From Pseudodesulfovibrio piezophilus C1TLV30 (lineage in GTDB: Bacteria; Desulfobacterota; Desulfovibrionia; Desulfovibrionales; Desulfovibrionaceae), in contig NC_020409.1 of assembly GCF_000341895.1 (NCBI RefSeq), forward strand, positions 660,001-692,000: a stretch of 32,000 nt of DNA, written 5' to 3'. Made by a program: the position numbers and the translations under genes. Under the pieces are notes generated by a model, which saw only the letters and a program-made list of their open reading frames with translations, was not told the origin of the DNA and ran no database searches. This document shows, piece after piece, positions 2,355 to 24,139 of the stretch. Every line of letters starts with the position of its first letter. The first letter of the stretch is position 1.

Positions 2355-2490
2355 TTGAACCCACTTGTATCTTTTCTAGAATCAATAACGTATTGTTAAC
2401 ATAGTTTGTGATACGGAATAAGGTACAGGATATCGTACCTACCTGAACTATATTGGACATGTAACTCAAACGAGGGTTTGTGAACAGCCT
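2355..2490. promoter_or_regulatory. res-type resolution site / divergent tnpA-tnpR promoter region
   Basis: 136-bp region between divergent tnpA and tnpR, where res lies in Tn3-type elements. It contains the dyad AGGTAC-N8-GTACCT (2421-2440), centred on an AT dinucleotide, and the palindrome TGTTAACA (2394-2401). Subsites I-III were not delimited. Confidence 0.55.
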
Positions 2491-3117
2491 ATGAAAATTG
2501 GTTACGCACGAGTGTCAAAAGCTGATGGCTCACAAAATTTAGATCTCCAACGAGATGCTTTGCTGAAGGCAGGAGTTCCTGCTAAGCGCATTTATGAAGA
2601 CATGGCTTCCGGCAAGAAAGGCAAACGTCCAGGTTTGGACGCTTGCCTAAAAGCTCTACGCCAAGGAGACATTCTGTTGATTTGGAAGCTTGATCGCCTA
2701 GGGCGAGATCTCAAGCACCTTGTATGCGTGGTGCAAGAACTTGCTGAGAAGGATATTGGCTTTAAAGTCCTCACAGGGCGTGGGGCAGATATCGACACAA
2801 CCTCTGCAAGTGGCAAGCTGATTTTTGGCATCTTCGCAGCCCTTGCCGAGTTCGAGCGTGAATTGATCAGAGAGCGAACCATGGCAGGGCTTGAAGCCGC
2901 CCGCGCTCGCGGTCGCAAGGGAGGACGGCGATTCGCTCTAAACAAGACCCAAGTACAAATGGCGCAAGCTGCAATGAAAAACAAGACAACTAGCGTGAGG
3001 AATCTCTGTAAAGAGCTTGGGGTAACACGGGTCACCCTTTATAGGTATGTAAGTCCAAGTGGTGCGTTAAGGGGGCATGGCATACAGGTTTTAAATCCAC
3101 ATGCCCCACATGCATAA
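2491..3117 (+). CDS. tnpR: Serine recombinase, Tn3-family resolvase TnpR
   Basis: 208 aa. N-terminal MKIGYARVSKADGSQNLDLQ is the catalytic-serine motif. It also has a GRKGGR hinge and a C-terminal HTH (VRNLCKELGVTRVTLYRY). Divergent from tnpA. Confidence 0.9.
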   Translation: MKIGYARVSKADGSQNLDLQRDALLKAGVPAKRIYEDMASGKKGKRPGLDACLKALRQGDILLIWKLDRLGRDLKHLVCVVQELAEKDIGFKVLTGRGADIDTTSASGKLIFGIFAALAEFERELIRERTMAGLEAARARGRKGGRRFALNKTQVQMAQAAMKNKTTSVRNLCKELGVTRVTLYRYVSPSGALRGHGIQVLNPHAPHA

Positions 3118-3144
3118 GTCGTCAACTTCATTTATTGCGATATC

Positions 3145-3408
3145 TTATTGTCTTGTCAGCACTTCCTTCATTCGTTGGTATTCATCCGCAGTGAGTTCTC
3201 CCTTTGCGAATTTTTCCTTGATGATGTTCAGGGAGTCATCTCTGTCCGGTCGTCCACCTTGTCGGGAGGTGAAGGCTTGAAAGAGTTTGGAGATGAGATA
3301 CACCGCAACCAATGCGAGAAGTATCATCCAAATGAATCCAAACATGCCGCCTCCCATGAACCAGCCGGGGCCACCGCCATTCAATATTCCAAAATTACAA
3401 CTCCACAT
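3145..3408 (-). CDS. Small SHOCT-domain membrane protein
   Basis: 87 aa with a Gly-rich N-terminus and one TM segment (IWMILLALVAVYLISKLF). The C-terminal KFAKGELTADEYQRMKEVL is a SHOCT-type motif. SD AAGGAGA lies 7 nt upstream of the ATG. It lies 70 nt downstream of the ZraP-like gene on the same strand. Confidence 0.7.
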   Translation of the reverse strand: MWSCNFGILNGGGPGWFMGGGMFGFIWMILLALVAVYLISKLFQAFTSRQGGRPDRDDSLNIIKEKFAKGELTADEYQRMKEVLTRQ

Positions 3409-3439
3409 GATTTAATCTCCTTATGAGCATGAGAGGTGA

Positions 3440-3457
3440 GGGGGAGTTTCCTCCCCC
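3440..3457 (-). promoter_or_regulatory. GC-rich intercistronic hairpin between the ZraP-like and SHOCT genes
   Basis: GGGGGAG-TTTC-CTCCCCC: perfect 7-bp stem with a 4-nt loop. No T-tract follows on the minus strand, so it is not a classical terminator. Confidence 0.4.
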
Positions 3458-3477
3458 ATCGAATTCGAGATTCAGAC

Positions 3478-3942
3478 CTACCAACGGGGGCAGTTGTAGC
3501 CGTATCCATTATCGTAGCCATTGTAACCCATCATACCGGGACCCATACCACGCCCCATCATGCCTCGGCCCATTCCGCGTCCCATCATGCCGGGACCCAT
3601 CATGCCATTGGTCGGGAGATTCTGAGCAGCAGCCTTTTCATTGAGGGTGGTGATGCCCTCATTGATCTGCTTTGTCAGGCTGCGGACCTTCTTTGCATCA
3701 GGATTAGGACTGGCCATGATAGCGGCCAGTTCAGCGCGGTCTGCATCAATCTCTGCCCTCAGCTTGGCGGTGGAGTTCAGGAAGTCCTGATACGCCTTGT
3801 TGTTGGTGTCGAAGGATTGTGCATTGTATCCATTGCCATTCCAACCTCCGCAGTTGCCGTATCCCCATGCCATTGCATCGGTTGCGACGAAAGCGAGACC
3901 AACAGCCATAACCAGTGCCAAAGCGATAATGTTCTTCTTCAT
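3478..3942 (-). CDS. zraP: ZraP/Spy/CpxP-family periplasmic stress protein with Gly/Met-rich tail
   Basis: The track ORF is 3478-3984. The signal peptide MKKNIIALALVMAVGLAFVATDAMA begins at ATG 3942, with SD AGGAGA 7 nt upstream. The central helical segment is AKLRAEIDADRAELAAIMASPNPDAKKVRSLTKQINE. The C-terminal tail is GMMGPGMMGRGMGRGMMGRGMGPGMMG. It is divergent from a sigma-54 HK/RR pair, as in E. coli zraP-zraSR. Confidence 0.72.
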   Translation of the reverse strand: MKKNIIALALVMAVGLAFVATDAMAWGYGNCGGWNGNGYNAQSFDTNNKAYQDFLNSTAKLRAEIDADRAELAAIMASPNPDAKKVRSLTKQINEGITTLNEKAAAQNLPTNGMMGPGMMGRGMGRGMMGRGMGPGMMGYNGYDNGYGYNCPRW

Positions 3943-3991
3943 GATAATTTCTCCTATTGAGTGTTTTGTGAACAAGCTTTGCAATGACTAA

Positions 3992-4007
3992 GGCAAGACT
4001 GATGCCA
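3992..4007 (-). promoter_or_regulatory. Sigma-54 (-24/-12) promoter for the ZraP-like operon
   Basis: The minus strand reads TGGCAT-CAGTC-TTGCC. This matches TGGCAC-N5-TTGCW with the correct GG-N10-GC spacing. It lies about 50 nt upstream of the ATG at 3942, and a sigma-54 activator is encoded next door. Confidence 0.65.
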
Positions 4008-4187
4008 AAGAATGAACAAACTCTACAAGTCGCACTTAATATTGGAGAAAAGTATTTTCCAGCGGAATCCGCCGCGTGATCTGGATTGAGAAGGTAGGCG
4101 TGAGTGCTTAAAAAGTGTACACATGAGGCATGCAGAGTGTCTAAATTTTAGCCAGGCTGTCTCGATCTGAAAAAGGAAAGCCGAATA

Positions 4188-6029
4188 ATGAAGAAAAGAA
4201 TCAACAATTTTTTGGGAAATATGTCGCCTTGGGCTGTTATCGGGATGAGCCTTATCCTTGTAATCGTGGTGCTCGTTTTGGCATTCATGAATTACAATCG
4301 CGAAAAACAATATATGGGACGGGTGCTCAGTGAGAAAGGCTCGGCCTTGATCAAAGCCTTTGAAGCAGGAACACGCACTGGAATGATGGGCATGCTCGGT
4401 GAGGGACCCAACCTGCAAGTGTTGATGCAAGAAATCGCGACCCAACCCGACATCCTCTACATTGCCGTGGTAGACTCCTCCGGAGAAATTCTGGCGCATA
4501 GTAATGAAGTTGAAATCGGTCAGCAGTTTATCTCCGAAAAGGATTTGACCGAGTTGGCTGTCACCAAGGATTCTCAGTGGCGTGTCGTAGATGAACCCGA
4601 AGGCACAAAGTCTTTCGAGGTGTTCAAGCGATTCCTTCCTGCTTTGGCACAGCGCACTCAGTCTGGCCTGCCTGCAGCAATGCAGCAAAGAAGAAGCCAG
4701 ATGATGCAGCGTATGATGGGCAGACAGTCAGGAGGCATGTCCGATGATTGGTGCCAACCGGGCTGGATGAGTGGACTTAAACAGGACAGGATATTGGACC
4801 CAGCCGAACGACCTGCCATATTTATTGGTATGGACGTAGCTCCGTTCGAAGAGGCCATTGCCGAAGACGTTTCATTAACATTGACTATGTCAGGTATCCT
4901 GCTGCTCTTGGGCCTTGGTGGCGTGGTGTCTTTGTTCTGGATGCAAAGCCACACACGGTCCAAGAAGCTTTTGCAGGACTCTCAAGCGTTGACCGCAGAG
5001 ATGGTAGCGAACATCCCAGAAGGTCTGGTTGTATGCGATCCTGATGGACGAATCACCTATGCAAACGACATTGCCCTTGCTCTGTTGGCACGTGATTATG
5101 ATGATATCACACGGATTGTGGGACAACAGGCCAAAACCCTCTTGCCCGATGAACTCTGGGTGCTTCGCTCCTCAGTAAATACAGAGCAGCAGGTAGTTGA
5201 GAAAGAAATGGAGCTTGCGTTGAATGACGGACATAAGTTGCCTATAGCGGCGGTTGTAACTGATATCATCACCGAAGAGGGAGTCAATGTTGGCCAGTTA
5301 TTTATGGTTCGCGACCTGAGTCAGGTCAAAGAACTCCAAGAAGAGGTTCGCAAAGCCGATAGAATGGCAGCTATTGGTCATCTTGCCGCAGGTGTTGCTC
5401 ATGAGGTGCGCAACCCTCTGAGTTCCATCAAGGGCTATGCAACATACTTCGGCTCCCTTTTTGATGAAGGCAGCGACAATCGAAAGGCAGCAGAGGTCAT
5501 GACCTCGGAAGTTGATCGACTGAACCGAGTCATATCTGAACTCCTTGAAATGGCCCGTCCTGCTGACGTCAAACTGCGCGATACGGATGTCTCAACGCTT
5601 CTTGAAAGCTCTCTGCGCTTGGTTAAACAGGAGGCCGAAAGTGCGGGTGTGTCCGTGTCCTTGGAGACCTCCAAAGACATTGGAGATGTCATCCTCGACC
5701 CGGATCGGATGACGCAAGCCATGATCAACCTTTACGTCAATGCCATTCAGGCCATGCCGGATGGAGGCACGCTTGCAGTCGATGCCAACAGGCATGGAGC
5801 TTTCTTGCAGTTGACGGTTTCAGATACAGGCGCAGGGCTTTCTGATGCTGATGTGTCGCGCATATTTGACCCGTACTTCACCACCAAACAGACCGGAACA
5901 GGGTTGGGCCTTGCCATCGTGAGCAAGATTGTCGAAGCCCATTCCGGCGAAATCAAAGTTGAATATACCGGGCCAAATGGAACAGCTTTTACCATTCTCA
6001 TTCCGATAGAATCAAAAGGAACGGCGTAA
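4188..6029 (+). CDS. zraS: Membrane sensor histidine kinase, ZraS/HydH-like
   Basis: 613 aa. Two TM segments bracket a ~200-aa periplasmic domain, followed by a PAS-like region. H-box HEVRNPLSSIKG; ATPase boxes NLYVNAIQAM, DTGAGL and GTGLGLAI. Confidence 0.85.
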   Translation: MKKRINNFLGNMSPWAVIGMSLILVIVVLVLAFMNYNREKQYMGRVLSEKGSALIKAFEAGTRTGMMGMLGEGPNLQVLMQEIATQPDILYIAVVDSSGEILAHSNEVEIGQQFISEKDLTELAVTKDSQWRVVDEPEGTKSFEVFKRFLPALAQRTQSGLPAAMQQRRSQMMQRMMGRQSGGMSDDWCQPGWMSGLKQDRILDPAERPAIFIGMDVAPFEEAIAEDVSLTLTMSGILLLLGLGGVVSLFWMQSHTRSKKLLQDSQALTAEMVANIPEGLVVCDPDGRITYANDIALALLARDYDDITRIVGQQAKTLLPDELWVLRSSVNTEQQVVEKEMELALNDGHKLPIAAVVTDIITEEGVNVGQLFMVRDLSQVKELQEEVRKADRMAAIGHLAAGVAHEVRNPLSSIKGYATYFGSLFDEGSDNRKAAEVMTSEVDRLNRVISELLEMARPADVKLRDTDVSTLLESSLRLVKQEAESAGVSVSLETSKDIGDVILDPDRMTQAMINLYVNAIQAMPDGGTLAVDANRHGAFLQLTVSDTGAGLSDADVSRIFDPYFTTKQTGTGLGLAIVSKIVEAHSGEIKVEYTGPNGTAFTILIPIESKGTA

Positions 6030-6031
6030 AT

Positions 6032-7402
6032 ATGAGTGCCAAGATTTTAGTTGTAGACGATGACAAAGCACACCTATCAATGCTTGAAACGATGCTTACG
6101 GGGTGGGGGTATGCTGTTGTGGGCGTGGAAGATGGGGCAGACGCCATTGAGAAGGTGAAGGAGGCTCCCTTTGACGCTGTTCTGATGGACGTCAGAATGG
6201 CAAGAATCGGTGGCATTGAAGCCCTGAGCCAGATCAAGGAATATAACCCGGCCATTCCGGTTGTGATCATGACCGCATACTCTTCCGTTGATACGGCTGT
6301 GGAGGCGATGAAGTTGGGGGCGTATGACTACCTGACCAAGCCCTTGAACTTTGATGAACTCAATATGACTTTGGAGCGTTCTCTGGACCACATGACGCTC
6401 ATCAAGGAAAACCAGTCCCTCAAAGAGAGAATATCGGAAGACTCAAGCCTGACGGACATTATCGGCAACAGCAAGCCCATGAACGAGCTTATCAGTATGG
6501 TTAAGACTGTCGCATCGACTGAGGCCACGATCTTGATCTCCGGCGAGAGTGGCACCGGGAAGGAACTGTTTGCCAAAGCGATCCACGCAAACAGCAACCG
6601 GAAGAAGGCATCGCTTGTGACTGTCAATTGCGCTGCCCTGACTGACACTCTCTTAGAATCAGAACTCTTCGGCCATGAAAAAGGTGCGTTCACTGGAGCA
6701 GACAAGAAAAGGGATGGCCGTTTCATGCAAGCCAACGGTGGTTCCATATTCTTGGATGAGGTTGGTGAAATACCGATGCCAATGCAGGCAAAGTTGCTCC
6801 GGGCAATTCAAGAGCGAGAAATCCAACGAGTCGGCAGTGACAAAGTCTTGAAGGTTGATGTCCGAATCATCGCAGCAACCAACAGAGACCTCTTGGTTGA
6901 AGTCGAAAAAGGGAATTTCCGAGAAGACCTGTATTACAGGCTGAACGTGGTGAACCTCTGGATTCCGTCTTTGAAGGAGCGTGGAGAGGATACACCACTG
7001 TTGGCTACATTTTTCTTGAAGCGTTTCTCCGAGTTCAACAGAAAGCAGTTGAAGGGATTTACCCCCATGGCAATGGATGTGCTCGTGAAATATGATTGGC
7101 CCGGAAATGTCCGTGAACTGGAAAACGCAGTGGAAAGAGCAGTCATTCTTTCCGCTGGTGAATACGTGTCTGAAAAGGATTTGCCTTCAGCACTTACGCA
7201 GCATTTCGAAAATGTTAGTGGCTCCAATGGAGGCCAGCATCACGTAGGCGGCAAGTCGCTGCAAGAGATCGAAAAGGTTGCCATCGAAGAAACGCTGACA
7301 CAGACGGAAGGCAATAAAAGCGAGGCGGCAAAGCTGCTGGGCATCACGCGCACGACGTTGGACAATAAGATCAAGAAGTATGAAATATTTATTAAGAAAT
7401 AA
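6032..7402 (+). CDS. zraR: Sigma-54-dependent response regulator (NtrC family), ZraR/HydG-like
   Basis: 456 aa. Receiver domain (ILVVDDD, DVRM); AAA+ activator core with GESGTGKE and the GAFTGA loop; C-terminal Fis-type HTH (AAKLLGITRTTLDNKIKKY). The start codon is 3 nt after the kinase stop. Confidence 0.9.
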   Translation: MSAKILVVDDDKAHLSMLETMLTGWGYAVVGVEDGADAIEKVKEAPFDAVLMDVRMARIGGIEALSQIKEYNPAIPVVIMTAYSSVDTAVEAMKLGAYDYLTKPLNFDELNMTLERSLDHMTLIKENQSLKERISEDSSLTDIIGNSKPMNELISMVKTVASTEATILISGESGTGKELFAKAIHANSNRKKASLVTVNCAALTDTLLESELFGHEKGAFTGADKKRDGRFMQANGGSIFLDEVGEIPMPMQAKLLRAIQEREIQRVGSDKVLKVDVRIIAATNRDLLVEVEKGNFREDLYYRLNVVNLWIPSLKERGEDTPLLATFFLKRFSEFNRKQLKGFTPMAMDVLVKYDWPGNVRELENAVERAVILSAGEYVSEKDLPSALTQHFENVSGSNGGQHHVGGKSLQEIEKVAIEETLTQTEGNKSEAAKLLGITRTTLDNKIKKYEIFIKK

Positions 7403-7491
7403 CGATCGCGTTTTTTTACTGTCTCGCAATTAGAAATTATTATTACAACAGTCAGACATTTAAGAGGAGGGGGAACCACTTGGGGCGCTTT

Positions 7492-7530
7492 CTAAGCGTG
7501 CGTTTTTTCCCTTTCTATGGAGTGTCCCCC
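7492..7530 (-). repeat. Terminal inverted repeat (right end) of the Tn3-family transposon
   Basis: The reverse strand reads GGGGGACACTCCATAGAAAGGGAAAAAACGCACGCTTAG. Outer GGGG and inner ACGCT(T)AG are the Tn3-family IR signature. From memory, the Tn501/Tn1721 IR is GGGGGAACCGCAGAATTCGGAAAAAATCGTACGCTAAG. With GGGGG outermost at 7530, the element lies to the left. Confidence 0.75.
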
Positions 7531-7541
7531 TGAAGACGACT

Positions 7542-7573
7542 AAACGGAGGCGGCTTTCAAGCCGCCTCCGTTT
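7542..7573. terminator. Strong symmetric hairpin (possible bidirectional terminator)
   Basis: AAACGGAGGCGGC-TTTCAA-GCCGCCTCCGTTT: perfect 13-bp stem with A/T-run ends. It starts 12 nt outside the transposon IR. Confidence 0.5.
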
Positions 7574-7583
7574 ATGTGCCCCT

Positions 7584-7620
7584 AAACAAAACGGCCCGAC
7601 ACTTCCCCAAGTGTCGGGCC
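7584..7620 (-). terminator. Rho-independent terminator of the island operon
   Basis: GGCCCGACACT-TCCCCA-AGTGTCGGGCC: perfect 11-bp stem. On the minus strand it is followed by GTTTTGTTT. It lies 30 nt downstream of the stop of the 195-aa gene. Confidence 0.7.
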
Positions 7621-7649
7621 ATTCAAGGAGAAAGGGGCAACGCTGAAAG

Positions 7650-8237
7650 TTACCACCCCATGAAATTGCGAATTCTCAACTCTTCCTGTCGAGCTTGCTC
7701 ATGAGTGCTCATTGACAAAACCTGTTCAGGTTTGGCTCCAGCCCGGAAAAACAAATGCAAAGTTCCTTGGGAAAAATTAGAGCTACCAACAGAGTGGCTC
7801 CTTTCTCCTGCACCAACGTCACGCAAATCTGAAAGCCGGTACATCTCCCCGCCGAAATAGATAGCGTCGGCCCCACGATCAATCACCAGGTAGCCTCCAC
7901 GTCGATACTTAGCCGGCACGTAGAAATCGACCTGGATCTCACCGCACTCAATCGCTCGTTTAATTCTATTGTAGGTAGGCACAGCGAATATGTGACTGAA
8001 TGCAAATAAAAGCGTGATAATGCCCACCGGAACGAGAAACCAAAAGGCTATAAGAGACCAAAAGGCAGCAATATCATTCATGCCGAGTGCAGCAGACACG
8101 ATCAGTAGAGTAACAACAACTCCTAGCCCTTTTAAATCCCTGACCACAGGGTTTAGGCCAATGATATCCTTCAGCTGATCCTTGACAGAATTACCCCCTT
8201 CTTGACTGAAGGGAATACTGTTCGTGCTAAAATTCAT
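7650..8237 (-). CDS. Hypothetical two-TM membrane protein (candidate entry-exclusion-type protein by position only)
   Basis: 195 aa. SD GGAGG upstream of the ATG. Two adjacent hydrophobic helices (VVVTLLIVSAALGM and AFWSLIAFWFLVPVGIITLLFAF) are followed by a ~110-aa soluble domain. I recognised no family motif. Confidence 0.6.
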   Translation of the reverse strand: MNFSTNSIPFSQEGGNSVKDQLKDIIGLNPVVRDLKGLGVVVTLLIVSAALGMNDIAAFWSLIAFWFLVPVGIITLLFAFSHIFAVPTYNRIKRAIECGEIQVDFYVPAKYRRGGYLVIDRGADAIYFGGEMYRLSDLRDVGAGERSHSVGSSNFSQGTLHLFFRAGAKPEQVLSMSTHEQARQEELRIRNFMGW

Positions 8238-8273
8238 ATGGCCTCCATTTCAGAATTGATTTCGAACTCTCAA

Positions 8274-8294
8274 ATACGTATAAAGTATACGTAT
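8274..8294. promoter_or_regulatory. Operator-like palindrome upstream of the 195-aa gene
   Basis: ATACGTATA-AAG-TATACGTAT: perfect 9-bp arms. It lies 37-57 nt upstream of the ATG at 8237 and 35 nt downstream of the stop of the 761-aa gene. Confidence 0.35.
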
Positions 8295-8328
8295 GATTGT
8301 TAAAAAAATCAATTTCATTCTATGAGTC

Positions 8329-10602
8329 TCAATCTCGGTCAAGCAAATTCGAGCCAGCCCCTCCCGTCCCTTCAACCACTTCTGACACCTCTCCAGGCCT
8401 ATTGGGGTTATATCCAGAGCTTCCTCCAGAGGATTCACCACCTCCCTTCTTACCTTGGTTATCACCTCTCTGAGGCTTGCTACTAGGCTTAGGGGAACTA
8501 TGCGTCACATTCCCCACACCTCCCATAATTATTTGCCTCATAGAATCAGCATGTCCTGCGAGGCCCATTGTAGAAGCCTGATGACCTATCCAACTCATAA
8601 CTTTACGCGGCAGGTGAGAATAGCCTTGGGAGCAAAGGAAAGAAAACATATAGACGAAAAGTACACTCATGATAATACACATGAAGAAACTAGTTAAAAT
8701 GCCTGTATGGGATGAAACCGAACTAATATCTGCATTCGAATAACTGTAATAAAATGCTTCAAATATTCTAGCGACAATCCAGCCCATCACTCTCATGATC
8801 ATAAATATAATTATAAAACCAGCGACATAGAGAGGTGGTTTAAAAAGAATCTCAAGGAATTGGTAGTATCCCTGACTACCCATTTCGCCTGCAAGGCCGT
8901 CTGCTTGAGTACTCCATGCATGGGCAGCCACCCAAAAAGGTGCGGCTACCATCACTTCTACGACAAGCAACAGAAATCCAACCATAGCAATACACCAATA
9001 CAACATAGGCATAAGAGGTATTACATAGGCAAATATAATTCCGATTGTGTACAGTCCATCAGTAATTTTAACCACCGATTCGGCTATGTACTTTGCCCCT
9101 TCTATACCGGCTCCAGCAGCTCCTTCAAGCTGTCCACCTGTGAAGACACCAACAACTTTCCCAAACAAACTCTCGGTAAAGCCCTCCCCGTAACCTGAGG
9201 CCATGCGCAATCCCAGCCCTGCACTCCAAAGCATGGCACTTGCATCCATTATTCGATGTCCAAATTGCGCGACTACGAGCGTAGGATCTTCATTTTCAAA
9301 GCGATTCAACAGATCTTGGAGGAAAAAACGCCCAGAAAAAGCATATAACGCATCTTCAACCATGCTAGACACATCTCCAGCTAGCATAGCTTGCTTGATG
9401 GACGTACCTACTTGTGATGGATCGGGTTGCGCATTAAATTTCGCATCGCCTACGGATAAGGCTATTCCCAGACCACCAAAAAGAAAATCTTCGGCTTGTC
9501 GGCTAACAGCCTTGGTATCCATTCGGCTCAAGTTAACCGGGCTAGCAACTATATCTCGTGCTTCCCTAGAAAGCTGAGACATCATCAACGGCCATGCGCC
9601 AGCTGCCATCCAGCCAAGTTCTTTAGTCTTGCCAACAAACTTCTGAGAATCTTGTGTGATCTGATATTGAGGGTAGTATGACGCAAAGTTTTGAATGACC
9701 GGCATGACGGAACTTTGATACGCATTAACAGCTGAAATCAGCCAATTGGAATCAGTTTGCTCTACACCGTATACGATTCTGGAGGCAGCCGGGAAAATCA
9801 CATTATTCATAGCTATGATGCCGTTCACTTTCGCCAACATCATAGGGTCTTTGACATCACCAGGGATTTCGATAGTGCCGAGATCCTCTGAATCTAGACC
9901 ACGCCCTGGAGGAACCGCGAATTTAAAAATCCACTTTGGCCTGTCGTTTGAAAACAAGCTGAAGTCATTGGACTCAAGGGTTGAACTATGGGCACTGGTG
10001 GAAAACGGTAAAAAGCCTACCCACACCGGAGAAATTGGCTGGGAACCTCGTTTCAAAAATTCCCTATTCTCATCAATGGACTCTTTGCTAATGTAATTCT
10101 GAACCAAGCCTGCCTGCATCAAAACACGCGCGATATTCTTGGCCTCCTCTTGCATCTGTGGAGGCATTTCAGCCGTGACTGCAGCAAAATTGGATTTAGC
10201 CAAATGATCCATGGAAAAGTAATAGATGCTATTTGCCCAGGTGCATGCCCAACCGAGGCATACAAGAATTCCAGCTTGAAAAAGGGAAATCCCCCCCGAA
10301 AGCATAGGAGTCGTCATGGTCATTCCAAACATGCAACGGATCGGCCACCACACACCATTGAAACGCCTACCTCCGACCGTGCCCTCCTGGGCAGTTCCAC
10401 CCAGAGACATAACAAAGGTCCATATCGACCAACCAACAACCGCCGCCATGAGCAGCGTGTTGATCTCGGAGAGAATTTTGAAAAAGGGGGTGTTGACCGA
10501 GGCGTGCTCTGTAATCGCCCACCAGTTCTCTCCAAATATCTTCGAGAATGCGATCGCGGACATGTCGGTTGGGGAAAGGTCAGGAGAGATAGGTATGGCC
10601 AT
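8329..10602 (-). CDS. Polytopic membrane protein, DotA/TraY-family-like (type IVB secretion / I-type conjugation)
   Basis: The track ORF starts at TTG 10614; ATG 10602 (MAIPISPDLSP) is the likelier start. The N-terminal block SPTDMSAIAFSKIFG...TAQEGTVGGRRFNGVWWPIRCMFGMTMTTP parallels, from memory, the conserved DotA N-terminus PPPTDLSVVFLGNLFG...TAHEGQMLGQKWSSIWVPVRSTIGLALLIP. Topology is an N-terminal TM pair, a ~350-aa extracytoplasmic region and a C-terminal TM bundle. Size is close to IncI TraY. Confidence 0.55.
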   Translation of the reverse strand: MAIPISPDLSPTDMSAIAFSKIFGENWWAITEHASVNTPFFKILSEINTLLMAAVVGWSIWTFVMSLGGTAQEGTVGGRRFNGVWWPIRCMFGMTMTTPMLSGGISLFQAGILVCLGWACTWANSIYYFSMDHLAKSNFAAVTAEMPPQMQEEAKNIARVLMQAGLVQNYISKESIDENREFLKRGSQPISPVWVGFLPFSTSAHSSTLESNDFSLFSNDRPKWIFKFAVPPGRGLDSEDLGTIEIPGDVKDPMMLAKVNGIIAMNNVIFPAASRIVYGVEQTDSNWLISAVNAYQSSVMPVIQNFASYYPQYQITQDSQKFVGKTKELGWMAAGAWPLMMSQLSREARDIVASPVNLSRMDTKAVSRQAEDFLFGGLGIALSVGDAKFNAQPDPSQVGTSIKQAMLAGDVSSMVEDALYAFSGRFFLQDLLNRFENEDPTLVVAQFGHRIMDASAMLWSAGLGLRMASGYGEGFTESLFGKVVGVFTGGQLEGAAGAGIEGAKYIAESVVKITDGLYTIGIIFAYVIPLMPMLYWCIAMVGFLLLVVEVMVAAPFWVAAHAWSTQADGLAGEMGSQGYYQFLEILFKPPLYVAGFIIIFMIMRVMGWIVARIFEAFYYSYSNADISSVSSHTGILTSFFMCIIMSVLFVYMFSFLCSQGYSHLPRKVMSWIGHQASTMGLAGHADSMRQIIMGGVGNVTHSSPKPSSKPQRGDNQGKKGGGESSGGSSGYNPNRPGEVSEVVEGTGGAGSNLLDRD

Positions 10603-10603
10603 A

Positions 10604-11464
10604 CTATTCACCAAGCTCCTTCATCGTCTTTACAACCATGCTTCTAGCTACATCAGTATCAAAACTTAAGCCGCCTATTGTAATCATTGGGGTACTCGTT
10701 GCGTCTAAGAAATGAATGAAGTCTTCCCCCCGCCCCTCAGAAATCAACTTTTCAATCACTGCTCGATGCTGACTTGAGGAGCTTCCCCTCTCTCCTTGAG
10801 CCACTTTCTCGGCCTCCTTCTCAAGTAAATCCAAATTCAATTTTCCCTGTTCGCCAAGAAGCACCATTTTTGCTTTATATGCATCGGCATCTTTTTTGAT
10901 TACCGAACATATATCAATCCACCTCAAGACCTCAGAAGAAAGACAACCACTACTGCCTTTTCTCTTTTTTGTTCTTGTTCTCTTTTGGGGGTTCTCTTCA
11001 AAGAGGTACTGATTCTCTTTGGGTGACATCTTGTCACCGTTGGAGGGGTGACTTTTTGTCGCTCCTAGGGGTGACTTTTTGTCATCCCTAGGGCGACTTT
11101 TTGTCACCCTGTCAGACTCTTGCTTTGTCCGAGTCAAAGCTGAATCAAAAATTGGATGCCAAAGGAAATAATAACGATTGGTTGTCTGCAGACGACTTTT
11201 CTTTCTGAAGCAACGCTCAACTTCAATGAACTTTTTTTCAATCAACTCATTGAGACAGCGTTGTACGGTTCGTCCGCTACAGCCGAGCCCTTCTGCAATG
11301 GTATCAACACCAGGAAAACAATCACCGGTTTCACCTGCATGTTGTGCTAACTTCCCCCAAACAAGTTTAGATGAAAGCTGTAACCCATCGAAACTCGCTA
11401 CAATATCAGGAATAAATAACCCCACAAAAAGCTTGTAAGGCAAAAAGCGCACACCGGGTTGCAT
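10604..11464 (-). CDS. Winged-helix/HTH (HTH_36-like) protein, putative replication initiator of the element
   Basis: 286 aa. The N-terminal LSSKLVWGKLAQHAGETGDCFPGVDTIAEGLGCSGRTVQRCLNELIEKKFIE is the pattern seen in phage/plasmid replication-organiser HTH domains. A basic low-complexity linker is encoded by the iteron-like repeats. The start is 4 nt after the alpA stop. Confidence 0.55.
   Translation of the reverse strand: MQPGVRFLPYKLFVGLFIPDIVASFDGLQLSSKLVWGKLAQHAGETGDCFPGVDTIAEGLGCSGRTVQRCLNELIEKKFIEVERCFRKKSRLQTTNRYYFLWHPIFDSALTRTKQESDRVTKSRPRDDKKSPLGATKSHPSNGDKMSPKENQYLFEENPQKRTRTKKRKGSSGCLSSEVLRWIDICSVIKKDADAYKAKMVLLGEQGKLNLDLLEKEAEKVAQGERGSSSSQHRAVIEKLISEGRGEDFIHFLDATSTPMITIGGLSFDTDVARSMVVKTMKELGE
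11021..11108. repeat. Four phased iteron-like direct repeats (candidate ori) inside the rep-like gene
   Basis: GGGTGACATCTTGTCACC (11021), GGGGTGACTTTTTGTCGC (11045), GGGGTGACTTTTTGTCAT (11068) and GGGCGACTTTTTGTCACC (11091). The period is 22-25 bp. Each unit has the internal dyad GGTGAC/GTCACC. An A/T-rich homopurine tract (about 10950-11000) lies alongside. Confidence 0.6.
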
Positions 11465-11468
11465 AACT

Positions 11469-11672
11469 TTAGCTGGCTGCCGTTTCAGATAGGGAGTCTA
11501 TCAACTCAAGGATATCCTCAACACGCCAAGCCCTTGTTCTTTTCGTCAACTGCACAGGTTTTGGATATTTTCCAGACTTAACCCCACGCAACCAAGTACT
11601 GCGACTGAGGGGAATAACGGCAAGGACTTGAGGCAGGCGAACAAAGCCCACTTGCGGAAAAGGTTGTTTCAT
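11469..11672 (-). CDS. alpA: AlpA-family transcriptional regulator / excisionase-like HTH protein
   Basis: The track ORF starts at 11684 (MEEHM). ATG 11672 has SD GGAGGA upstream. The sequence FVRLPQVLAVIPLSRSTWLRGVKSGKYPKPVQLTKRTRAWRVEDILELI matches the AlpA/MerR-like excisionase pattern. Confidence 0.8.
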   Translation of the reverse strand: MKQPFPQVGFVRLPQVLAVIPLSRSTWLRGVKSGKYPKPVQLTKRTRAWRVEDILELIDSLSETAAS

Positions 11673-11691
11673 ATGTTCCTCCATAGATTAT

Positions 11692-11709
11692 GGCATTCAC
11701 ATGAATGCC
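11692..11709. promoter_or_regulatory. Palindrome immediately upstream of alpA
   Basis: GGCATTCA-CA-TGAATGCC: perfect 8-bp arms, 8-25 nt upstream of ATG 11684. No T-tract follows on the minus strand. Confidence 0.3.
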
Positions 11710-11795
11710 TTTACTCTTGGTGAAACCTTATGGAACAAAATCGATTATTAGTAACATTACAACTACCTCTATTATGAGGTGGTTAAAATGTAGAA

Positions 11796-12563
11796 TTATA
11801 ACTTGAGGTTATTTATAACAAGAGCCCCCAAAGTAGACTCGGCAAAAGGGTTACCAGTAAGACCAAGGGGTTTTTTAGTGTAATCAAGAAACAGTTTAGC
11901 AAACGTTAAAAATGGCCCACTGAACCCTGCGCCATCTGAACGTTTAGCACCACGGCCTTCTCCTCCAGCCTTATGATAATACTTCTGAAGCCATTTCAAG
12001 CAACGTTCAATTGCAAAATTTTCAGGACGCCCAGAAGGATATGGCAAGCTTCTCTCATCCATGATTTTTTTCCTACAAAGAGCAAGATAGTCGCTGACAT
12101 TTTTCCCATCTAGGGCGATTTCTCCGACTTCATCGTCGAATAATTTACATTCTTTGACAACCAACCGAGGAAAACCATCCCCTTCACCCCTATCTACAAA
12201 ACAATTCACAGATGGACGTACATGCTCGTACAGATACAACTTAATTGGATCATATTCATCTTCGCCTAAGGTTCCCGGGGAATCCCACTCGAGAAAAGAC
12301 TCAAGTAATCTACATGCTTTCTCAACATGTTTGAGCAACTCTTTTCTTTCGTCAGCTAAAGGCCTGTCCACACAACCTCTCAGCTGACAAACATATCCCG
12401 CGAGTGCCCTTTTTATACCTTCACGAATGTCTTCGTTTAGCTTTAGGCCTGTCTGTCCCTCTATTGCCTCAAAATTGATCTCAGGAAGGACGTCTAGATT
12501 AACACCGCTCCAAGACTCCCCTTTCCGACCAACAAAAGTATTTAATTTCGACCTTTCGCTCAT
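11796..12563 (-). CDS. Hypothetical protein, ~255 aa, translationally coupled to the integrase gene
   Basis: The track start GTG 12569 overlaps the int stop (GTGA). ATG 12563 has SD AAGGTGGGG inside the int 3' end. The protein is acidic and soluble-looking, and I recognised no motif. Confidence 0.6.
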   Translation of the reverse strand: MSERSKLNTFVGRKGESWSGVNLDVLPEINFEAIEGQTGLKLNEDIREGIKRALAGYVCQLRGCVDRPLADERKELLKHVEKACRLLESFLEWDSPGTLGEDEYDPIKLYLYEHVRPSVNCFVDRGEGDGFPRLVVKECKLFDDEVGEIALDGKNVSDYLALCRKKIMDERSLPYPSGRPENFAIERCLKWLQKYYHKAGGEGRGAKRSDGAGFSGPFLTFAKLFLDYTKKPLGLTGNPFAESTLGALVINNLKL

Positions 12564-12565
12564 AC

Positions 12566-13786
12566 TCACCCCACCTTCTGAGAAAACAATGGAACAACCT
12601 TCCCGCCAGCCTTCAAACTATCCAAATAGTCTGCCCAAGCTTGCATCATTAGTTTACGCTCCGGCAGATGCTCAGCGTAATTGTAGCTCGCCCTCACCTT
12701 GTCTTTAGGCGTGTGGGCCAACTGCCGCTCAATGGCATCCTTATGCCAGCCATGCTCATTTAAAAGTGTTGAAGCCATAGACCTGAAGCCATGCCCTGTC
12801 ATTTCGGTTTTGTCGTATCCAATACGCCGAAGAGATACATTGATCGTATTTTCAGACATCGGGCGTGCCGACGTTCGCACACTTGGAAAGACATACCCAG
12901 AGGGGCCAGTAAGTGGATGAAGTTCTGTTAAGACCTCCACGGCCTGAGTGGACAGGGGGACAATATGGGGACTTCCTCCTTTCATTTTCTCCGCAGGTAT
13001 CCGCCACTCGCTCCCCTCCAAATCAACTTCACCCCATTCTGCGTTCCTGAGTTCTCCTGGACGCACAAAAACCAAGGGAGCGAACCGAAGAGCGCAATGC
13101 ACCACCAAAGTCCCTGAGAAGCCATCTACAGCCCTTAAGAGGGGGCCGATTTCCTTAGGGTCGGTTATCGAAGGATGATGTTTCACCTTCCTCGCAGGAG
13201 GGAGCGCACCCTTGATATCCGCAGCAGGATCTCGCTCAGCTCGTCCGGCAGCCACTGCATAGCGGAAGACCTGGGACATTATTTGACGAATACGCCGAGC
13301 TGTCTCTACGGCTCCTCGTTTCTCGCATCGTTGAACGACTCCAAGCATATCCTCAACGCCAAGCTCCGATATGGGCCTGTCTCCAATGAAGGGGAAGATG
13401 TTCTTCTTCATCCGTTCCATTGTGGTTTTCGCGTGGCGCTCACTCCACCCTGAGCCTACCTGTTTCCCGAACCATTCCCTTGCAATGGCTTCAAATGCCT
13501 CACTTGCACTTGCTTTCCTCTTGTCCTCCTTGCGCTTCCGAGAAGGATCATGACCTTGAGCAATGAGGGTTTTCAGGTCTCCCCGCTTAAGTCGTGCTTC
13601 TTGCAAACTGATGTAAGGATATGGCCCCAGAGACAGCATGGTCCGCTTGCCATTGATTTGGTAGCGAAATCGCCACCACTTACGCCCTTTCGGGTTAACG
13701 ACTAGAGATAGGCCTTCACCATCATTCAGGGTGAATTCTTTGGATTTCGGTTTGGCTGCTTTGATCTTGGCATCTGTCAGCGGCAT
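12566..13786 (-). CDS. int: Tyrosine recombinase, P4-type phage/island integrase
   Basis: 406 aa. The N-terminal MPLTDAKIKAAKPKSKEFTLNDGEGLSLVVNPKGRKWWRFRYQINGKRTMLSLGPYP is the arm-binding domain typical of P4-like integrases. The C-terminal catalytic region includes HGFRSMASTLL and ASYNYAEHL. SD AGGAGAA. It lies 180 nt from a tRNA 3' end. Confidence 0.92.
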   Translation of the reverse strand: MPLTDAKIKAAKPKSKEFTLNDGEGLSLVVNPKGRKWWRFRYQINGKRTMLSLGPYPYISLQEARLKRGDLKTLIAQGHDPSRKRKEDKRKASASEAFEAIAREWFGKQVGSGWSERHAKTTMERMKKNIFPFIGDRPISELGVEDMLGVVQRCEKRGAVETARRIRQIMSQVFRYAVAAGRAERDPAADIKGALPPARKVKHHPSITDPKEIGPLLRAVDGFSGTLVVHCALRFAPLVFVRPGELRNAEWGEVDLEGSEWRIPAEKMKGGSPHIVPLSTQAVEVLTELHPLTGPSGYVFPSVRTSARPMSENTINVSLRRIGYDKTEMTGHGFRSMASTLLNEHGWHKDAIERQLAHTPKDKVRASYNYAEHLPERKLMMQAWADYLDSLKAGGKVVPLFSQKVG

Positions 13787-13803
13787 GTAGTCTTCTCCTG
13801 AGA

Positions 13804-13860
13804 GTGGTATAATGAAAAATGGTATATTTCGATTTATACCATTTTTTGTACCTTTATACC
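13804..13860. repeat. Four TGGTATA/TATACCA heptamers (candidate arm-type recombinase or AlpA sites)
   Basis: TGGTATA at 13804-13810 and 13819-13825; TATACCA at 13834-13840 and 13854-13860. They lie between the int start and the tRNA 3' end. Confidence 0.4.
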
Positions 13861-13902
13861 AGCCATCTCAAGACACCCTATGACACCGCAAGGCACACAA
13901 AA

Positions 13903-13931
13903 AGAAACAAAAAAGCCCTCATTTTGAGGGC
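13903..13931 (-). terminator. Rho-independent terminator downstream of tRNA-Ser
   Basis: AGCCCTC-ATTTT-GAGGGCT hairpin, followed on the minus strand by TTTTTGTTTCTT. Confidence 0.55.
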
Positions 13932-13967
13932 TTATGACACTTTATGAACCAAAGTGATTTTATTCTA

Positions 13968-14059
13968 TGGCGGAGAGGGAGGGATTCGAACCCCCGGACG
14001 AGTTGCCCCGCCTCTGGTTTTCAAGACCAGCGCATTAAACCGAGCTCTGCCACCTCTCC
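13968..14059 (-). tRNA. tRNA-Ser (anticodon UGA), CCA encoded
   Basis: The minus strand reads GGAGAGGTGGCAGAGCTCGGTTTAATGCGCTGGTCTTGAAAACCAGAGGCGGGGCAACTCGTCCGGGGGTTCGAATCCCTCCCTCTCCGCCA. It has a 7-bp acceptor stem, anticodon stem CTGGT/ACCAG with loop CTTGAAA, a long variable arm (class II) and T-arm GGGGG-TTCGAAT-CCCTC. Length 92 nt. Confidence 0.9.
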
Positions 14060-14925: not shown

Positions 14926-15915
14926 TTAGCGAGTTGTATCGTGTAAAAATTGTTTTAAAGCCTTCATTTCACCATGAAGGCTTTTCCAACTGTACCGTCC
15001 ATCCAGCTTCTCCCCTTCAGCTGTAAATTGAATCCCAAGCCCGATAGCCCCACCCCGTCCACGAAAGCGACTTCGAATGACACCAACAACTGTAAAATAT
15101 GAAAATTTTTTACTTTTTGGGTTCCAGACACTAACCCGTAGAATCAATTCATTTCCTTGATTTAGAGTGGGCAAACCTCCTTTGGGATGTAAAATAAACA
15201 TGCGCATCCCACCCGCAGAGATATTCTCTACGCTTAATCGCATTTTTTCCCCATAGCGTGCTGGATTATTTATAGTTTGCAAATCCGGTTTTGCCATCCA
15301 GAATGATTTTCGCTTGTTCCCCTCCCAAGCCTTGACCCTGATAGCTCCTTCCCGCGTAACTCGCTGTCGACTATGTTTTCGTCTGACAATAAATCGATAC
15401 CGAACCGGAGTCATCAATGACAATGCTTTGATAACCGAACCTCGTTTACTCACCGATGCAACAAAAGTAGAAAAGGAATTCAACTTCTTGCCGGAATAAG
15501 TAAAAGGGTTGGTATAACAGATCACACGGGTGTTCTTAAGATTCAATGCAGTAGGTTCAACTTTAATTAGCTGCAATTTCATCATGCCATTAACAACTTC
15601 TTCCACACGCGCAGTCGCTATTTTTCGCCCGCTCCCATCTGTAGAATACTTATACACATTAACGATAATACCTTTTTTAATCAGGTAATTTTCGACAATA
15701 CTATGAGTACGAGGGGCAAAAACACGATAAAAAAGTCTGAGAATGGTAAAACCGATAATATGACGATAGTGCCAAAGCGCCATCACGAGTATAAGGGGCA
15801 CTGTAATCAACAGAATTTTGGAAAAAACAACAACCAAATCAATTCGGTCGGACCCACTGCCGAATGTCCGCTGGACATCACGCAAATATTCAAGTTGAGC
15901 AGTAAAATCCAACAT
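14926..15915 (-). CDS. Membrane-anchored PilZ-domain protein (putative c-di-GMP receptor)
   Basis: The track start is TTG 15930; the first ATG is at 15915. It has an N-terminal TM segment (ILLITVPLILVMALW). PilZ motifs are RRKHSRQRV and ENISAGGMRM. Confidence 0.7.
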   Translation of the reverse strand: MLDFTAQLEYLRDVQRTFGSGSDRIDLVVVFSKILLITVPLILVMALWHYRHIIGFTILRLFYRVFAPRTHSIVENYLIKKGIIVNVYKYSTDGSGRKIATARVEEVVNGMMKLQLIKVEPTALNLKNTRVICYTNPFTYSGKKLNSFSTFVASVSKRGSVIKALSLMTPVRYRFIVRRKHSRQRVTREGAIRVKAWEGNKRKSFWMAKPDLQTINNPARYGEKMRLSVENISAGGMRMFILHPKGGLPTLNQGNELILRVSVWNPKSKKFSYFTVVGVIRSRFRGRGGAIGLGIQFTAEGEKLDGRYSWKSLHGEMKALKQFLHDTTR

Positions 15916-16137
15916 AAGAACAACTTCCAAAGTTCAAATAGTTATAAATAATGGGCACTCACAGCAAACTATCGAAGATGATTTCGAATAAAAACAATCT
16001 GTCATACAGTCAATACAATAGATATCAAGTCGTTAGCATGCTGGCAATGAGATGTCTTAATGAGCAGGCTCGCATTACCTTAGGTACTGTTAACTCAACC
16101 TTCTGAAAAAGAGTCATCCCCTTACGGGGTACGAAAC

Positions 16138-16154
16138 TTGCCAATCGATGGCAA
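16138..16154. promoter_or_regulatory. Inverted repeat upstream of the HdrD/GlpC-like gene
   Basis: TTGCCA-ATCGA-TGGCAA: 6-bp arms, 37 nt upstream of ATG 16191. Confidence 0.25.
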
Positions 16155-16190
16155 ATGGTTAGTTACTGAGAAACGAGAGACACCGGCACT

Positions 16191-17489
16191 ATGAAGAAAA
16201 AACAAGAAACACAGCACACCCAATTTCTGAATACCTGCGATTTTTCCAATTGCCTCGTCTGCGGAGCGTGTTCCAATGGTTGCCCGACTACAGGAGCACC
16301 TGATTTAGCAGGCTGGGACACGAGGAAAGTCATGCGTATGCTGGCAAATGGTCTTATTGATGAGGTCATTGCATCAAAGTTCCCCTGGCTTTGTACCGGA
16401 TGCGGTCGGTGTACCAGCACCTGCCCTGGCGGTCTTGATATACCCTCGATCATGACACACCTCAAGAGTCTGCGGCCGAAGGAGGATATCCCCGGCACAC
16501 TGTATCAGGGTATGATCAACAACCTCGAAACCGGCAACAATTTGGCTATTTCCCCCAAAGATTACCTTGAAGGCATGGCTGAACTTGGCCACGATTTGGC
16601 AAAAGAATGTCCCGGCTTCTATGTTCCTGTTGACAAAGACAATGCCGAAATACTTTTCTTCCCCAACTCCAAAGAAGTCTATGGGGATTTTGAGGATCAA
16701 TTCTGGTGGTGGAAAATATTTTACGCAGCCAAGGAAAACTGGACGGTTCCTGGAAACAATTGGGAAGCGGTTGATTGGGCTCTTTTCACAGGGAACGATA
16801 AAGCAAATGAGGAGCTTGCCAGACGAAAAATAGCCTACATGAAGGATCATTCCATCAAAAAGATGATTATGCCCGATTGTGGTGGCGGGTCCTACGGCTG
16901 CCGGAAAGGAATGTCCAAACTGAATACACTGGACCCAGCGAATGAAGTGGGCTTCTTGTACCTGTATGACTATCTCATCGAAATACTTAAGACTGGCCGT
17001 ATCAAACTGGATAAATCGGTCCATAGTGGCAAAAAATTTACATATCATGACTCGTGCAAACATGGTCGTGAGTTGGCCAGGACCTATGGCAAAGGCTATT
17101 TTGATGAGCCTCGGTGGATTCTCAACCAATGTGTGGATAATTTCGTAGAGCTGACTCCCAATCGTGAAAAGAATTATTGTTGTGGAGCTGGTGGAGGTCT
17201 CTGGCCCATGCCCTTTGAGGCGCAGTCAGCATGGCATGCCCGATACAAACGTCGCCAGATTAAAGAAAGTGGAGCAGATGTCGTTGTCGTGGGGTGTTCC
17301 AACTGTCGCGATCAAATCATGAAACGTATACCCAGGTATTTTGAGGGATGTGAATTTGAAGTCAAATATATATGGCAGTTGGTTGCCGAAGCACTGATTA
17401 TTGAACCGTGGTCCCAAGAAGAGATCTCGCAAGGTGAAAAGCAAGCAGTGACCCAATGGAAAGCGCTTGATATTTCTCTTGAATCTTAA
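16191..17489 (+). CDS. HdrD/GlpC-type (Fe-S)-binding protein with two CCG domains
   Basis: 432 aa. Two ferredoxin-type motifs (CLVCGACSNGCP and CTGCGRCTSTCP). Two Cys-rich CCG-type regions (DSCKHG and NYCCGAGGG...VGCSNCRDQ). Confidence 0.8.
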   Translation: MKKKQETQHTQFLNTCDFSNCLVCGACSNGCPTTGAPDLAGWDTRKVMRMLANGLIDEVIASKFPWLCTGCGRCTSTCPGGLDIPSIMTHLKSLRPKEDIPGTLYQGMINNLETGNNLAISPKDYLEGMAELGHDLAKECPGFYVPVDKDNAEILFFPNSKEVYGDFEDQFWWWKIFYAAKENWTVPGNNWEAVDWALFTGNDKANEELARRKIAYMKDHSIKKMIMPDCGGGSYGCRKGMSKLNTLDPANEVGFLYLYDYLIEILKTGRIKLDKSVHSGKKFTYHDSCKHGRELARTYGKGYFDEPRWILNQCVDNFVELTPNREKNYCCGAGGGLWPMPFEAQSAWHARYKRRQIKESGADVVVVGCSNCRDQIMKRIPRYFEGCEFEVKYIWQLVAEALIIEPWSQEEISQGEKQAVTQWKALDISLES

Positions 17490-17519
17490 ATGATACCCCC
17501 CTTGTATTCTTTTTATAAG

Positions 17520-17540
17520 GCCCGGTTTTTCCGGGCTTTT
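17520..17540 (+). terminator. Rho-independent terminator
   Basis: GCCCGG-TTTTT-CCGGGC followed by TTTT, 30 nt after the stop at 17489. Confidence 0.7.
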
Positions 17541-17735
17541 CTGTTGCTGCTTTGGCAAAACAATTGTAAAGGATGGAAGGGAATATACAGAATCACAACT
17601 TTGGAAAACATGCTCATTCTTTGCAGATTCAGAATATTTTTTACGCTCATTTAAACTTTCGTTGCGTAAACAATTTGCGAGTTCCCCTAATGAAAAGAAC
17701 TCCCCACTTTCAGACAGACTTATCAAGGTACAATC

Positions 17736-24109: not shown

Positions 24110-24139
24110 GCCTCCCCTCTTTGCCAATAGAACGGTCGT

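Follow-up and report, generated by a model that had tools for sequence, protein, structure and literature searches.

A traY gene and a putative exclusion-type partner as a portable pair on a small tRNA-Ser island of Pseudodesulfovibrio piezophilus

An orphan traY and its partner gene

The window analyzed here, a stretch of 32,000 nt from the deep-sea sulfate reducer Pseudodesulfovibrio piezophilus C1TLV30 (NC_020409.1, positions 660,001–692,000), contains at 7530–14059 an island that has about an even chance of being the visible part of an integrative mobilizable element (IME) inserted at a tRNA-Ser gene; the start of the window falls inside the transposase gene of a Tn3-family transposon inserted in it. 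The sole conjugation-related cargo of this visible island is a two-gene cassette, formed by a full-length gene of the DotA/TraY family, whose products are VirB6-type channel subunits of type IVB machines of the mating-pair formation class I (MPF-I), and by a gene for a 195-aa inner-membrane protein that is a candidate entry-exclusion partner. Comparison with related loci indicates that both genes very probably constitute a functional and portable TraY-plus-partner module, borne by elements without visible mating-pore genes. We propose, by analogy with known mobilizable islands and with a probability of roughly 0.5, that the island is an IME carrying a VirB6-type subunit and its cognate exclusion gene, with which it would remodel the mating pore of a helper type IVB element. 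This reading is plausible, if unproven, and is better supported by the comparative data than by the window alone. The cassette and its signals are as follows:

7541–7640, minus strand: two strong terminator-like hairpins downstream of the pair, conserved in the related loci L004 and L001
7650–8237, minus strand: 195-aa inner-membrane protein, candidate entry-exclusion partner (AlphaFold2 model; member of a rare family whose genes flank traY)
8274–8312, minus strand: intergenic control region, with a 9-3-9 palindrome, ATACGTATAaagTATACGTAT, and a promoter-like site
8329–10614, minus strand: full-length member of the DotA/TraY family (TIGR04346), a VirB6-type subunit of the type IVB/MPF-I channel

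Both open reading frames (ORFs) are present on the minus strand where an earlier note, made from the sequence alone, had placed them, and its description of the larger one, of 761 aa, as DotA/TraY-like is borne out: the ORF scores 227.6 bits (E 3.2e-67) against the NCBIfam model TIGR04346 (DotA_TraY), for a cut-off of 100, and Legionella DotA (PDB 9ngy) is matched, at E 2e-11, by a profile built from the ORF and its relatives, in four colinear blocks, namely the N-terminal block, GWMAAG, the C-terminal transmembrane (TM) bundle and HLPxKVxxWIG. The protein displays the architecture of the DotA/TraY family over its full length, in that a conserved N-terminal block and a C-terminal multi-TM bundle enclose a large central part and HLPxKVxxWIG is present; its TM segments are at the N-terminus and in residues 514–665. 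It is 43–46% identical over its full length to the TraY proteins of complete type IVB secretion system (T4BSS) clusters, described below, and only ~20–25% identical to enterobacterial TraY. Legionella and Coxiella DotA share with it the colinear N-terminal block, GWMAAG and the C-terminal TM bundle (9ngy), although the window TraY is ~290 aa shorter. As its score with the DotA equivalog model NF033886 was 100.6 bits, against a cut-off of 500 bits, we rejected it as a DotA orthologue proper; from its sequence, we assign it to the conjugative TraY branch and not to the effector-translocating DotA branch.

The true start of traY is likely the ATG at 10602, which gives a product of 757 aa: this codon lies 1 nt after the stop codon of rep, the replication initiator gene of the island, is preceded by AGGAG, is the start common to the homologues and is the one annotated by NCBI (757 aa). 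Because of this position, 1 nt past the rep stop codon and with AGGAG upstream, traY is probably co-transcribed and translationally coupled with rep. The palindromic, operator-like site that the earlier note saw ahead of the partner gene is real: the sequence ATACGTATA-aag-TATACGTAT, at 8274–8294, is nearly conserved in L004, as seen in an alignment with L004 and L001, and it shares bases with the −10 hexamer of a promoter-like site (TTGATT-17-TATACT, 8312–8284 on the minus strand), although the count of such sites in our scan did not exceed that expected by chance. Downstream of the pair, the first hairpin is a perfect 16-bp inverted repeat (7541–7574), and the second is formed by GGCCCGACAC...GTGTCGGGCC followed by a T-run (~7594–7622).

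Searches with Pfam, NCBIfam and PHROGs found no ATPase, coupling protein, relaxase or other type IV secretion system (T4SS) protein between the tRNA-Ser gene and position 7529, as the earlier note had stated for the stretch between the integrase and the Tn3 insertion. The type IVB (MPF-I) gene cluster in which DotA/TraY genes usually reside is not found around the 761-aa ORF within 7530–14059; in these visible 6.5 kb there are an integrase, an AlpA protein and a tRNA-Ser junction, and no mating-pair formation genes.

Conservation and mobility of the pair

Complete type IVB clusters related to the window TraY are found in loci L002/L003, L005 and L017, with genes for DotH, DotG/TrbI, DotI, a 1000-aa TraU-like protein and TraW-like proteins. 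The traY gene is the last of the cluster in all of them and is followed, in convergent orientation, by a member of the 195-aa family; the one from L005 is identical to family member P0025, and the traY neighbor in L002/L003 shows 31% identity with the 195-aa protein over 108 aa (BLASTP, E 1e-10). A hidden Markov model (HMM) of the 195-aa family recovers the traY neighbors in L002, L005, L017 and L018, with E values from 1e-47 to 1e-59. Locus L027 contains a traY whose product is 49.5% identical to that of the window, followed by two tandem and diverged members of the family (P0013 and P0018; 2231–3516), which suggests that the putative exclusion function was duplicated and has diversified. That relatives of the partner adjoin traY in complete T4BSS clusters makes the idea of an exclusion partner stronger than position alone would; by position and association, the 195-aa family is the putative counterpart of the exclusion gene in this type IVB branch. 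The traY neighbors in the Desulfosarcina, IncL/M and Pseudomonas plasmids did not match the family HMM.

The survey of related elements suggested by the earlier note revealed that the two genes are conserved together, and co-directional, on three further backbones without visible mating-pore genes. In L001, with 73% identity for TraY and 53% for the partner, the pair is directly downstream of a tyrosine-recombinase-like gene. In L004, a metagenome contig with 78 and 70% identity, respectively, a Rep3 initiator replaces the O-like initiator found in the window, and parA is located downstream. The most divergent is L018 (38% for TraY and ~30% for the partner), a 12.5-kb Rep3/ParA contig that contains NikA, a relaxase and a type IV coupling protein (T4CP), and on which we saw no mating-pore genes besides the traY pair. 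A tblastx match between L018 and the tRNA region was rejected as an artefact of sum statistics. The DNA homology between the window and L004 or L001 sets in at the start codon of traY, covers both genes together with the terminator hairpins and ends where the transposon interrupts the window; past the terminators, L004 and L001 run into a small convergent ORF, followed in L004 by parA, and T4SS genes are not found there.

The elements are clearly mosaic. The alpA DNA of the window (11488–11653) is 93–95% identical to positions 1–166 of L004, whereas the traY cassette is only ~76% identical and the initiators are unrelated, a pattern that from the sequence comparison is indicative of recent modular recombination among these small elements. 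Such mosaicism could also be expected if the pair were the last piece of a degraded type IVB integrative conjugative element (ICE) or plasmid, recombined into small elements and with no current role, and there is a precedent in the mosaic plasmid pST1023, which holds the IncI1 fragment oriT-nikAB-trbABC-excA-traY-traX-delta-traW (PMC9412624). We consider this explanation improbable: neither ORF is disrupted or shortened in any of the four elements, they form a two-gene unit with clean boundaries on different backbones, and tblastx comparisons with the complete clusters found no flanking T4BSS pseudogenes. Furthermore, the ratio of nonsynonymous to synonymous substitutions (dN/dS) relative to the orphan relatives is 0.07–0.11 for TraY and 0.16–0.28 for the partner, with synonymous sites near saturation, and both genes have therefore been kept by selection in the orphan state.

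The partner thus evolves faster than TraY, and TraY itself has hypervariable segments: divergence is concentrated at residues ~158–237, ~351–430 and ~471–510 and in the C-terminal tail, with the TM bundle highly conserved. By analogy, this distribution fits the pattern of exclusion pairs; between IncL and IncM plasmids, for instance, ExcA shows 35% and TraY 59% identity on backbones that are ~94% identical (PMC4416936).

The family of the partner protein

The earlier note had considered the 195-aa protein unrelated-looking, which agrees with our comparisons, because no similarity to ExcA was detected by BLASTP, HMM or hhalign. Identity of the partner with ExcA was rejected at the sequence level, as these three methods were all negative: the BLASTP comparison with ExcA gave an E value of 4.4 and hhalign a probability of 1.4%, the family HMM reached only ~0.5–0.9 bits with the ExcA proteins of IncI and IncL/M plasmids, and neither the 195-aa protein nor its 18 relatives matched the ExcA Pfam family, PF27689. 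Likewise, the protein belongs to no family in Pfam (including those of the bPH_2, PF03703, type), NCBIfam, PHROGs or PADLOC, and we found no solved structure related to it by sequence. The family is small: a profile search of 1.84 billion representative proteins retrieved 18 relatives at E <= 1e-3, which have in common the motifs ILG-xP, two TM helices, GEIxPDF and a C-terminal RLxNFLGW.

In an AlphaFold2 model of the protein, obtained with the family alignment as input (pLDDT 84), two long TM helices lead into an amphipathic helix and six beta-strands, and a further helix forms the C-terminus. The top matches of this model in a Foldseek comparison with the PDB all have the PH superfold (the PH domain of Rtt106, FERM F3, the PH domain of Sin1 and PTB), and they are non-significant (best E 0.057, TM-scores 0.2–0.4). 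PH-like is a reasonable, if unproven, description of the modeled C-terminal domain. The 195-aa gene is directly downstream of traY, as is excA in the records of IncI and IncL/M plasmids, and its product has an N-terminal TM hairpin and a C-terminal domain taken to be cytoplasmic; in the ExcA sequence these elements follow one another in the same order, although the model that we obtained for ExcA has a pLDDT of 46 and is unreliable for a comparison of folds.

Three further members of the family that we examined are located away from traY, in L021 (10001–10561; also L022 and L023), L012 (11800–12372) and L019 (8477–9013). The contexts without traY include prophage-like contigs, where the gene is next to lysis genes, a Geoalkalibacter plasmid, where it is beside NfeD/stomatin genes, and plasmid- or phage-like contigs. 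These members may be stand-alone exclusion or defence genes, and such solo genes would be expected because exclusion takes effect in the recipient cell, where the donor target is not needed.

These solo occurrences could also favor a role restricted to the protection of the recipient, in which the pair would be an anti-conjugation or immunity module against type IVB elements and TraY an exclusion co-factor or decoy. The absence of an evident helper in the genome would agree with that role, as would the existence of systems in which both cells must contain the exclusion protein (PMC12282955). We consider protection alone unlikely, because exclusion proteins work without the donor target, which leaves unexplained the maintenance of a polytopic TraY of 757 aa, at a dN/dS of ~0.1, on four backbones; additionally, the pair from L018 is coupled to genes for donor functions, namely the relaxase and T4CP of that contig, and PADLOC gave no match.

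Entry exclusion and remodeling of a helper pore

In MPF-I systems, ExcA from the recipient recognizes TraY from the donor, TraY being a VirB6 homologue, and VirB6-type proteins are the donor targets of entry exclusion across T4SS classes (PMC12282955; PMC4416936). The adjacency of traY and exc in R64 and the recognition of TraY by ExcA, to which the earlier note had referred, agree with these papers and with an annotated IncI-type plasmid record, in which traY is followed by excA on the same strand. In accounts of IncI1, IncI-gamma and IncL/M plasmids (Sakuma 2013, via PMC12282955; PMC4416936), traY is followed, as here, by the gene for an inner-membrane protein of ~200 aa, and the traY-excA pair of IncL/M plasmids co-diverges and acts as an exchangeable specificity cassette (PMC4416936). 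The pair described here differs in being on a non-conjugative island and in that its partner falls outside PF27689.

Two kinds of mobilizable islands provide the closest parallels. GISul2 and an IncP island carry, as transfer genes, only trbJ-trbK-trbL, which correspond to VirB5, an exclusion protein and VirB6 (PMC5704250). As in our island, they lack a complete pore and a VirB6-type subunit and an exclusion gene are almost their only conjugation genes, and they are proposed to reshape the IncP pores of a helper in the same way and to enter helper-bearing cells, a role that there too has only been proposed (PMC5704250). They differ from the window in being MPF-T and in having a VirB5 homologue, whereas the present pair is MPF-I and is not accompanied by a homologue of TraW/IcmX; additionally, they encode TrbK, a lipoprotein of 69 aa, to which the 195-aa two-TM/PH-like protein is not related. 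SGI1 resembles the putative element in the window in being an IME that brings an integrase and replication functions of its own; it swaps the TraG, TraH and TraN subunits of IncC plasmids for its own, and its TraG_S, a diverged protein of the VirB6 family, disables IncC exclusion (PMC5389848). It replicates when the helper is present (PMC7433901), and the integrase/excisionase/replication module of our island parallels this helper-triggered replication. The differences are that the SGI1 strategy has been shown experimentally, involves three subunits of an MPF-F system and no adjacent exclusion gene, is under the control of the AcaCD regulator of the helper and operates in Gammaproteobacteria.

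By analogy with these islands, when a helper type IVB element is present in the same cell the island would excise and replicate, and its TraY would take the place of the helper TraY in the mating channel. Transfer could then escape the exclusion protein of the helper in recipients that already hold it, and the partner protein of the island would exclude redundant entry through channels containing the island-type TraY. Membership in the TraY family, the lack of other visible T4SS genes, the conservation, portability and selection of the pair, and the association of the partner family with traY in complete systems are directly supported by the comparisons; the exclusion activity of the partner, the substitution of the subunit and the dependence on a helper we infer from the analogy. 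The pair is tied to donor functions, relaxase and T4CP, in L018.

Several points weigh against this pore-remodeling proposal. The visible island has no relaxase, T4CP or recognizable oriT, and blastn-short comparisons of its non-coding DNA with the related T4BSS and mobilizable loci retrieved only alpA and the terminators, with no mimic of an oriT; the portion of the island beyond the transposon lies outside of the window. No helper was identified, and the paper describing the P. piezophilus genome reports one chromosome and seven islands of 8–30 kb, without mention of conjugation, a situation that fits an IME stranded without its helper but provides no positive support for it. Additionally, sequence comparisons detect no homology between the partner and ExcA, its PH-like label rests on non-significant Foldseek matches, and the related loci are few, a handful in the databases searched: a metagenome scan with the TraY profile yielded L001 and one partial locus, and a scan of viral contigs found no further relatives.

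Lone DotA/TraY genes in Pseudomonas plasmids

As in the island, a lone DotA/TraY gene and no mating pore are found in the Pseudomonas plasmids p14057B (L026; 35 kb, gene at 23117–25516) and NZ_CP107550.1 (L013; 22.5 kb, gene at 7456–9726). This clade is very distant, as tblastn comparisons with the window TraY align only the C-terminal TM region, and the family HMM found no member of the 195-aa family beside these genes. The gene from p14057B adjoins MobC and an LPD7-domain protein in a plasmid typed as MOBP that carries tet(A), and the one from NZ_CP107550 is near an LPD7-domain protein. The paper on p14057B describes the plasmid as devoid of transfer or mobilization genes and does not comment on the DotA/TraY gene (PMC6205034). 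All 11 PLSDB plasmids containing a TraY of this clade are typed as mobilizable or non-mobilizable.

A separate observation concerns the 136-kb plasmid Do28_1 of Desulfosarcina ovata (L024), which contains a DotA/TraY gene at 14998–17574 together with DotD, DotH, TrbI, DotI and a T4CP. In spite of this evident type IVB cluster, MOB-suite types it only as "mobilizable"; the mobility typing of PLSDB is therefore unreliable for non-enterobacterial MPF-I plasmids.

The existence of a separate clade of orphan DotA/TraY proteins on small plasmids, without a detected partner family, could be explained if the TraY-like protein, with its partner in our island, were a stand-alone channel for export, uptake or signaling. 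However, DotA acts as a pentamer with IcmX within a large machine, the two forming the central channel of the Dot/Icm apparatus (PMC12857230), the orphan TraY proteins are 43–50% identical over their full length to those embedded in clusters, and the orphan genes adjoin relaxosome genes in L018 and p14057B, which points to conjugation. An autonomous function is thus quite improbable.

Backbone of the island and adjacent transposon

On the minus strand, reading from right to left, the order is tRNA-Ser, integrase, a 257-aa ORF, AlpA, rep, traY and the 195-aa ORF. The remaining features are as follows:

13968–14059, minus strand: tRNA-Ser, anticodon TGA (ARAGORN); the island is joined at the 3′ end of the tRNA gene
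12566–13786, minus strand: P4-type tyrosine integrase, 406 aa (Pfam Arm-DNA-bind_3, Phage_int_M and Phage_integrase; NCBIfam PRK09692, 289 bits)
11796–12569, minus strand: 257-aa protein of no family; its stop overlaps the integrase start
11469–11684, minus strand: AlpA-like excisionase/regulator, 71 aa (Pfam Phage_AlpA, E 6e-8; PHROG excisionase)
10604–11464, minus strand: lambda-O-like replication initiator, 286 aa, with HTH_36 and DnaD_N domains (Pfam; PHROG replication-initiation families, to E 1e-15)
11021–11109, no strand assigned: four ~23-bp iterons, GGGTGACTTTTTGTCAC-like, detected by a repeat search within the rep coding sequence; putative origin
1–7529, no strand assigned: Tn3-family transposon (Pfam Resolvase); the right inverted repeat ends at 7529 and tnpA is cut by the start of the window

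The 3′ end of the tRNA-Ser gene is separated by 180 bp from the integrase gene, and no second copy of this 3′ end was found within the window. The 257-aa ORF had no match in Pfam, NCBIfam, PHROGs or PADLOC, and no counterpart in the related loci L001, L004 and L018. The presence of iterons inside an O-like initiator gene is the arrangement of origins of the lambda-ori type; because of this location of the iterons, the island probably replicates after excision.

The transposon is just past the pair, outside of the module, and its left end is expected ~610 bp ahead of position 1 of the window; besides tnpA and tnpR, it carries genes for SHOCT and ZraP-like proteins and for a sigma-54 two-component pair. 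Copies with 94–99.97% identity are found at other insertion sites in L006–L011, and the homology stops at 7529; such copies occur in TARA and other marine metagenome contigs and twice in the genome assembly GCA_000375485.1; its presence here is therefore due to an independent, later insertion. Among its passengers are a ZraP/Spy-like periplasmic protein and a ZraS/ZraR-like sigma-54 pair, and it seems to be an envelope- or metal-stress transposon with recent activity. The ZraP-like gene contains three tandem 27-nt repeats (3527–3607), which encode the Gly/Met-rich motif GMMGRGMGP.

As the window begins inside this transposon and its other side is outside the window, the remaining type IVB transfer genes might lie beyond the insertion, in which case the island would be an interrupted ICE and its traY would not be an orphan. 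Against this stands the gene order, since traY is the last gene in the complete clusters, after traU/W/X-like genes, whereas here it is preceded, up to the tRNA, by rep, alpA and int; moreover, L004 and L001, which lack the insertion, continue to a small convergent ORF (and parA in L004), and the islands reported for the genome do not exceed 30 kb, with conjugation unmentioned. An interrupted ICE is, consequently, very improbable. Of the findings that the earlier note would have counted against its reading, namely a lack of DotA/TraY similarity, a full T4BSS set directly past the transposon or a pair not conserved together in related elements, none appeared in the window or in the related loci.

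Implications

The earlier note knew of no subunit-substitution system of this kind for type IVB machinery. We found no description of an orphan traY as a hijacking device in a literature that we covered incompletely; the strategy as such is known, for MPF-T in GISul2 and the IncP island and for MPF-F in SGI1 (PMC5704250), so that the novelty suggested by the earlier note is overstated. By analogy, there is an even chance that the island carries the strategy of SGI1 and GISul2 over to type IVB systems, together with a new family of candidate exclusion proteins.

A broader and rather doubtful possibility is that orphan traY genes, whether or not a PH-like partner accompanies them, are the sign of a widespread, unrecognized class of parasites of type IVB conjugation that swap the central DotA-type channel subunit of a helper machine and thereby escape exclusion, with the two-TM/PH-like family being a new type of exclusion protein that, on its own, would act as an anti-conjugation defence in prophages and plasmids. 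Such a class would extend from islands of deep-sea Desulfovibrionales to resistance plasmids of clinical Pseudomonas.

If the pore-remodeling proposal is true, the piracy of a helper pore by means of a VirB6-type subunit and an exclusion gene would span MPF-F, MPF-T and type IVB/MPF-I systems, the last of which include IncI, IncL/M (pOXA-48) and Dot/Icm-like machines, and there would be a new family of exclusion proteins, unrelated in sequence to ExcA. Natural, exchangeable TraY variants could reveal which segments determine exclusion specificity and which ones serve assembly with IcmX/TraW. Likewise, a lone traY would flag mobilizable elements that typing tools label as "non-mobilizable", such as Pseudomonas resistance plasmids.

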